The position numbers and the translations under genes are program-made. Shown here in pieces: positions 50,824-51,735 of a DNA stretch of 64,000 bases. Within the stretch, counting starts at the first letter, position 1; the number at the start of each line of letters is the position of its first letter. Under the pieces are notes generated by a model that was given only the letters and a program-made list of their open reading frames with translations, had not been told where the DNA came from and did not search any database. Source of the stretch: Micrococcales bacterium (GTDB lineage Bacteria > Actinomycetota > Actinomycetes > S36-B12 > UBA10799); assembly GCA_016703125.1 (NCBI GenBank), contig JADJCR010000001.1:71173-135172 (forward strand), read 5' to 3'.

Positions 50824-51735
50824 ATCCGCGCTTGCTGAAGGCGGGAGAGTTGCCGTCACCGGGGAGAGATCGAACCCGGTTGCATCGCTCCCGGGTGTCC
50901 GTTTCGCTCCCCGGTGGAGCTGGAGCCGTCCGGGGTGGACTGGAGCACCGCCGGTGGGGGGGGGGGGGGGGGGGGGGGGGGGGGGGGGGGGGGGGGGGGG
51001 GGGGGGGGGGGGGGGGGGGGGGGGGGGGGGGGGGGGGGGGGGGGGGGGGGGGGGGGGGGGGGGCGGGGGGGCGGGGGGGCGGGGGCGGGGTTCGGCGGGG
51101 TGGGGGAGGGGGGGGCGGGGCGGGGGGGGGGGCCCCGGGGGGGGCCGGTGGGGGGCGGGGGGGGGCCGGGGGGGGGGGGGGGGGCGGCGGGGCCGGGGCC
51201 CCCGGGGGGGGGGGGGGGGGGGGGGGGGGGGGGGGGGGGGGGGGGGGGGGGGGGGGGGGGGGGGGGGGGCGGGGGCCCCCGGGGGGAGGGGGGGGGGGGG
51301 GGGGGGGCGGGGGGCGGGGGGGGGGGGGGGGGGGGGGCGGGGGGGGGGGGGGGGGGGGGGGGCGGGGGGGGGGGGGCGGGGGGCCCCGGGCCGGGGGGGG
51401 GGGGGGGGGGGGGGGGGGGGGCGGCGGGGGGGGGGGGCGGGGGCCGGGGGCCCGAGAGCCGGCGCGGGGCTGGAGCACCGCCGCACCGTGATCCGCGCTA
51501 GCTGAAGGCGGGAGGGTTGCCGTCACCGGGGAGAGATCGAACCCGGTTGCATCGCTCCCCGGTGGGGGTTTCTCTCCCCGGTGGAGCTGGAGCCGCCCGG
51601 TGGAGCTGGACCACAGCCCCAGCATCCGCGCTAGCTGAAGGCGGGAGGGTTGCCGTCACCGGGGAGAGATCGAACCCGGTTGCATCGCTCCCCGGTGGAG
51701 CTGGAGCCGCCCGGTGGAGCTGGAGCCGGCGCGGC
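50824..51735. repeat. Tandem array of a ~133-bp repeat, split by the poly-G tract. Copies lie at 50824-50955, 51491-51623 and 51624-51735, with a partial unit at 51451-51490.
   Basis: The core atccgcgct[t/a]gctgaaggcgggag[a/g]gttgccgtcaccggggagagatcgaacccggttgcatcgctccc is shared almost identically by all three copies. Each core can form an 8-bp GC stem, CCGGGGAG...CTCCCCGG (a 7-bp CCGGGAG stem in copy A). The array lies in the convergent intergenic region between the GNAT and SDR genes. Confidence 0.8.
50956..51450. other. ~495-bp G-rich tract, about 89% G, with an uninterrupted run of ~108 G at 50956-51063. Probably a sequencing/assembly artefact.
   Basis: By direct count, 54 of the 495 positions are not G, and most of those are C. 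Both borders carry ctggagcaccgcc, which is part of the surrounding repeat unit. Confidence 0.9.

Follow-up and report, generated by a model that had tools for sequence, protein, structure and literature searches.

A poly-G tract of about 0.5 kb between convergent GNAT and SDR genes of an actinobacterial assembly is very probably a long-read consensus artefact in a strain-variable hairpin minisatellite

The DNA analyzed here, which we call the window, is a 64-kb stretch of a Micrococcales bacterium assembly. The feature of interest lies in a 945-nt spacer on which two genes converge, as the original prediction had described: one codes for a GNAT acetyltransferase and the other for a short-chain dehydrogenase (SDR) (Table 1). 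Running a script on the sequence, we recovered the uninterrupted run of 108 G residues (G108) that had been claimed, and the segment following it, earlier put at some 390 nt with about 86% G, was counted at 387 nt with that same composition and holds further runs of G66, G29, G24, G22, and G20. Taken together, positions 50956-51450 comprise 495 nt, of which 441 (89%) are G and the other 54 are C (48), T (4), or A (2), and A+T make up 1.2% of this tract against 28% of the real spacer around it. At the G content of the window, G108 would arise with a chance of about 5e-49 if bases were independent and identically distributed. The tract is also unique in the window, again in line with the earlier reading: the longest homopolymer elsewhere in the 64 kb has 7 bases, and a scan for stretches with at least 80% of a single base returned only 50932-51462. 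It dominates the GC-skew profile of the window and is crossed by open reading frames (ORFs) for poly-Gly and poly-Pro that have no counterpart in relatives. Farther along the window, adjacent genes for tRNA-Gln(CTG) and tRNA-Glu(CTC) occupy 61816-61982 on the + strand, an unremarkable pair with no connection to the tract.

The sequence on either side of the tract is a tandem array of units of about 133 nt, one before the tract and two after it. Each unit is built from a conserved core, which forms a long G+C-rich hairpin, and behind it 19-21-nt subrepeats of the GGTGGAGCTGGAGCCGGCC type in varying number. Folding of the unit at 51484-51616 gave z-scores of -2.4 and -2.9 for the two strands, while the hairpin copies were too similar to one another for covariation. 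The real array contains 40-42% G and 31-32% C. Within the 64 kb of the window, and within each of the related loci covered, the repeat core was located in this spacer alone. Scans of the spacer with Rfam and for tRNAs returned nothing meaningful, the lone Rfam match being a sub-threshold miRNA model. When JGI metagenome contigs were scanned for the core, a 26-mer gave 0 matches and a 16-mer gave 120, the element being present at none of these.

Querying with the GNAT protein led to a 99% homologue (P0001), and its cluster led to three long contigs from other samples, namely L037 (ENA ERZ25039527, 819 kb), L173 (ERZ25039462, 3.45 Mb), and L174 (GCA_963853255.1, 921 kb), all of them matching the window at 98.6-99.5% identity to the left and right of the spacer. 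Comparison of the orthologous spacer, which the original prediction had called for, showed clean units throughout in all three, with a longest G run of 4-5 and no tract. The GNAT-SDR spacer measures 529 nt in L037 and 450 nt in L173, with three units each, and 553 nt in L174, with four. A more distant, Illumina-assembled relative at about 90% identity (L038/L039) has a single unit and no tract. L174, the closest of these genomes, is collinear with the window by blastn up to 50953 and again from 51456, and the 502 nt at 50954-51455 of the window correspond to a part of its unit 2 that measures about 100 nt. The composite minisatellite itself occupies 50796-50953 and 51484-51740 of the window, L037:10655-11183, L173:3655-4104, and L174:3655-4207. 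Its units have 131-177 nt, consisting of a hairpin core of about 60 nt, rich in G+C, and two to four copies of the 19-21-nt subrepeat, and in the comparison of L037, L173, and L174 their lengths are not multiples of 3. We found it only in close relatives and only at the GNAT-SDR locus. To judge from these alignments, the array in the spacer is real and varies among strains in the number of units and of subrepeats, and the G tract is private to the assembly of the window. The real content of the locus is thus a strain-variable hairpin minisatellite, which is an ordinary kind of feature.

The edges of the tract keep a record of how it sits in the array. The same repeat-derived string had been reported at both edges, and we confirmed it as a 14-mer, CTGGAGCACCGCCG, one base longer than stated at the time. 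The spacing of its two copies, 530 nt or 4 x 132.5, places the tract in register with the repeat array, and the recognizable units on either side lie 667 nt apart from start to start, that is, 5.0 x 133. Relative to L174, L173, and L037, errors in unit 1 climb over its last ~25 nt. At the other end, the right ~45 nt of the tract can be aligned with the 3′ terminus of a unit in L174, with T, A, and C changed to G. This edge pattern resembles a consensus that progressively loses base identity and is unlike a foreign insertion with clean junctions. We also considered that the non-G letters inside the tract might keep the register of the repeat, and rejected it for all but those last ~45 nt: autocorrelation had no 133-nt period, and local alignment performed no better than block shuffles.

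Table 1. Coordinates of the genes, repeat units, and tract components at the GNAT-SDR locus (positions in the window).
Feature	Position	Strand	Basis
GNAT acetyltransferase gene; its stop precedes the array	50142..50795	+	ORF list; PF00583 on the 99% homologue
Real repeat unit 1: core hairpin, then two short GGTGGAGCTGGAGCC-type subrepeats	50796..50953	+	Base-level alignment to L174, L173, and L037 through 50953
Left 14-mer CTGGAGCACCGCCG, marks a unit end	50940..50953	+	Also ends units 1 and 2 of L174
Anomalous block, 502 nt	50954..51455	.	Sole stretch non-collinear with L174; blastn break points and edge alignments
G108 run	50956..51063	+	Sharp left border of the probable artefact
Noisy part of the tract, G/C-only, 86% G, including G66 (51204-51269)	51064..51450	+	Base counts; no residual repeat similarity in a shuffle test
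Transition zone: unit 3′ end re-emerges with T/A/C-to-G substitutions	51440..51469	+	Alignment to L174
Right 14-mer CTGGAGCACCGCCG	51470..51483	+	Spaced 530 nt (4 x 132.5) from the left copy
Real repeat unit, 133 nt, folding into a long G+C-rich hairpin	51484..51616	+	Folding
Last real repeat unit; 19-nt subrepeat x2 at 51691-51728	51617..51740	+	Repeat analysis
SDR (short-chain dehydrogenase) gene, convergent, bounds the spacer	51741..52505	-	ORF list; adh_short Pfam on orthologues

The assembly that carries the tract has other defects. In the window, two genes are frameshifted: the DUF6421 gene at about 44081, where the alignment with L037 shows a 2-nt gap, and the gene for enoyl-CoA hydratase at about 46095, through the loss of 1 nt in a G homopolymer. 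Neither is disrupted in L037 or in the reference proteins of the Illumina-assembled L038. These frameshifts are probably typical residual indel errors of long reads. Compensating 1-nt indels were also seen in the window at 48817/48836 and at 46890-46899. With regard to the origin of the assembly, the GNAT protein of the window has the same sequence as P0066 (NCBI MBK6761854.1), encoded on a 334,087-nt contig of a ‘Micrococcales bacterium’ metagenome-assembled genome (MAG), and the organism label of this entry is the same as that of the MAG that gave two of the related contigs, L006 and L007. That MAG comes from a study of activated sludge (PMC8012365), in which nanopore reads called with Guppy flip-flop were assembled with Canu 1.8 and polished with Racon, then twice with Medaka 0.6.5, and last with Racon again on HiSeq X reads (2 x 150). 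From the label and the GNAT match, the window probably derives from the pipeline of Singleton et al. (2021). Exact look-ups with the GNAT, SDR, and aldehyde dehydrogenase proteins of the window matched no contig.

One of these two contigs carries a tract of its own. L007 is a Canu contig of the activated-sludge MAG (PMC8012365) whose GNAT is 72% identical to that of the window, and 18 nt after the stop codon of this orthologue begins a C-rich tract of ~485 nt with runs of C50, C26, C22, and C19 (L007:10625-11109; JADKAV010000029.1, about 27284-27770 on the contig). The locus is reversed with respect to the contig, and the tract therefore reads as G on the deposited + strand. In the sister contig L006, as well as in L009, the downstream gene and the gene order are those of L007, and there is no tract. 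Since L006 is collinear with L007 on both sides, the tract of L007 is a net insertion of ~485 nt. The stop of the next gene is thereby changed to Trp (...DGLAGW), after which poly-Gly follows, and the contig also carries frameshift errors. With respect to the genes, the tracts of L007 and of the window run in opposite directions. Read each on its own G strand, they are built alike, with a sharp start at the purest run and growing complexity thereafter. A comparison of the L007 tract with the window tract and with the repeat returned low-complexity matches only.

To see how common such tracts are, we surveyed 41 further GNAT-bearing loci (446 kb), among them contigs produced with Flye and Medaka from R10 reads (PMC12313526) and many Illumina contigs, and found a tract in L007 only, which leaves the window and L007 as the sole carriers among 42 GNAT loci. 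None of 120 unrelated JGI loci (668 kb) had one. Two tracts at one gene boundary in two populations are unlikely if errors fall at random, which counts against an artefact; in the L007 locus alone, a random position would fall within +/-200 nt of the stop codon with a chance of ~2%. The coincidence calls for a locus-specific trigger. The spacer after GNAT is a break point of synteny, with at least five different downstream genes in relatives, and the identity between L006 and L007 also breaks there, from 95% upstream to 87% downstream. The trigger could plausibly be that, in mixed communities, the reads of related populations agree up to the GNAT boundary and then diverge. Across L001-L009, L042, L043, and L176, the genes 3′ of the GNAT orthologue include an SDR, the gene ending in ...DGLAG, a transpeptidase, a purine DNA glycosylase, and others. 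Two of these loci, L001 and L042, have unrelated short tandem repeats in the same spacer.

On balance, it is very probable, at the level of sequence comparison, that the G tract represents a failure of consensus building or polishing in a long-read (nanopore-type) metagenome assembly at a polymorphic hairpin minisatellite and not genomic DNA. The original prediction had favored a technical artefact replacing part of the tandem array, and the tract-free assemblies of the same species, the register of the units, and the frameshifts in the window support it; of the two technical causes named there, a mis-polished long-read consensus over a repeat is the one that fits. What is expected of such an artefact is found here, namely absence from same-species assemblies, a polymorphic repeat of the kind that is hard to assemble, and further consensus errors in the same assembly. 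Failures of nanopore base calling have been described for inverted repeats (PMC7229812) and for tandem repeats (PMC9414165). In a mixed community whose strains differ in unit number, reads from the inner array may have been placed inconsistently, and the assembler and polisher would then have lost base identity there and written a G-biased, G/C-only filler. Given the spacing of 530 nt, or 4 x 132.5, this filler may stand for about four real units; that a real expansion to ~7 units is hidden beneath it seems to us roughly an even bet. Our leading guess for what wrote it is a neural basecaller or polisher (Guppy, Medaka), which might give degenerate output on unalignable input. A simpler mechanism, a column-wise majority vote over out-of-register reads, was considered insufficient, as an array with so moderate a content of G and C would not yield G108. 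Literature searches turned up no specific account of a polishing artefact that yields poly-G, a further point against the artefact reading.

How the filler came to be written leaves room for a second account, which we regard as possible and somewhat less likely. A single nanopore read with a base-calling failure of ~500 nt may have served as the backbone, with a defect too large for the polishers to repair, in which case the true array would have about four units, as in L174, and the filler would be a pure insertion of junk. The net gain in length points this way, with 502 nt in the window against ~100 nt in L174, and so does the L007 tract as a clean insertion of ~485 nt relative to L006. Both tracts, moreover, measure ~0.5 kb, a length close to the 500-nt defaults of the Racon window and the minimap2 bandwidth, and the inner tract of the window holds no trace of repeat sequence. 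Nevertheless, the two flanking 14-mers are separated by a whole number of units, and on the right the tract grades into real sequence with no clean junction, neither of which favors a junk insertion. Either way, this account is a variant of the artefact verdict and no biological rival to it. The other technical cause in the original prediction, that no-signal poly-G reads from a two-color Illumina instrument were built in during assembly, gap filling, or short-read polishing, fits poorly, and we hold it to be very unlikely. The abrupt left border, at which real sequence gives way to pure G108, is what a read entering dark cycles would show, and most runs of G>=80 that we found in public metagenome-derived viral contigs (IMG/VR) were terminal, with lengths of 100-200 nt, as is usual for that artefact. 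The tract of the window, however, is internal and noisy, exceeds read length with its 495 nt, is interspersed with C runs, and fades into real sequence on its right; a pure run no longer than a read at the end of a contig is not what we see. HiSeq X is a four-color instrument. It was used in the study that yielded the L007 tract, whose project is thereby no two-color one, and by inference the same applies to the window, whose GNAT matches a MAG with the same organism label.

That the tract is real, an extreme homopolymeric G/C locus with G-quadruplex or poly-Gly/poly-Pro potential arising recurrently 3′ of GNAT, was the fallback of the original prediction, and it found no support; we consider it improbable in the extreme. 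In its favor, similar tracts occur at one gene boundary in two populations, ORFs for poly-Gly and poly-Pro run through the tract, and long natural homopolymers do exist, for instance the poly(C) of encephalomyocarditis virus, which our own scan recovered as L032. Against it, the tract is missing from three genomes with 99% identity, and its equivalent from L006 and L009; the two tracts have opposite polarity relative to the genes and share low complexity only, and the one in L007 destroys a stop codon. Furthermore, no other homopolymer in the window exceeds 7 bases, both host contigs contain frameshifts, and the ORFs lack counterparts. To our knowledge, bacterial homopolymers reach ~20 nt or less. 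We would give next to no credence to a genuine G/C tract of ~500 bp in vivo, recurrent at the GNAT 3′ junction of two actinobacterial populations. Another form of a biological explanation, which we mention as a possibility, is that nanopore base calling breaks down systematically at a hairpin minisatellite that is expanded or chemically modified and that, likewise, recurs at this junction.

Under the preferred reading, a long-read consensus failure, the tract has no biological weight and should be treated as unresolved sequence, while the strain-variable minisatellite may serve as a strain marker at most. The practical use of the tract is as a quality-control flag, as it indicates that public long-read MAGs can hold internal poly-G/C fillers of ~0.5 kb. 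Such fillers give rise to spurious poly-Gly/poly-Pro ORFs, to lost stop codons, as in L007, and to inflated local GC skew, and genome scans should mask them.

Finally, we compared the tract and the array with known systems. Poly-G tails from two-color instruments (NextSeq/NovaSeq) resemble the tract in that a long pure G run starts abruptly after real sequence, but they are bound by read length and sit mostly at contig ends, whereas the tract is internal, 495 nt long, and contains C runs, and its likely source project used HiSeq X. As a single-base run in a non-coding position, the tract is also similar to the poly(C) of cardioviruses and aphthoviruses and to the phase-variable poly-G/C contingency tracts of bacteria. 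The viral poly(C), however, is a conserved feature of the 5′ UTR of RNA viruses, and the tract is not conserved even among genomes with 99% identity. The scan of viral contigs for runs of 80 G returned a genuine homopolymer of this cardiovirus type, at 131-291 of L032 (IMGVR_UViG_638275981_000001), as well as internal poly-G/C runs in the G+C-rich, herpesvirus-like genomes L025, L028, and L034. Bacterial contingency tracts, at no more than about 20 nt, are found inside genes or immediately upstream of them; here, G108 and G66 are located between convergent 3′ ends, and strains of the same species have no tract at all. The array, for its part, is comparable to the MIRU-type VNTR minisatellites of Actinobacteria, being tandem, intergenic, non-coding, and strain-variable (three to four units, with two to four subrepeats per unit). 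Its copy number is polymorphic, as in those elements, but its units are longer (131-177 nt) and composite, it was seen only in close relatives, and in place of dispersal at many loci it has this single locus in the 64-kb window and in the related loci. A further parallel to the tract is found in the errors that nanopore sequencing makes at repeats. The reported cases are miscalled motifs and low-confidence calls in reads, and do not include a near-homopolymer of ~500 nt in a deposited consensus (PMC9414165; PMC7229812). Nevertheless, like those errors, the tract of the window lies within a tandem array of hairpins, its flanks are correct, it is accompanied by other indels, and it is absent from the other assemblies of the species.
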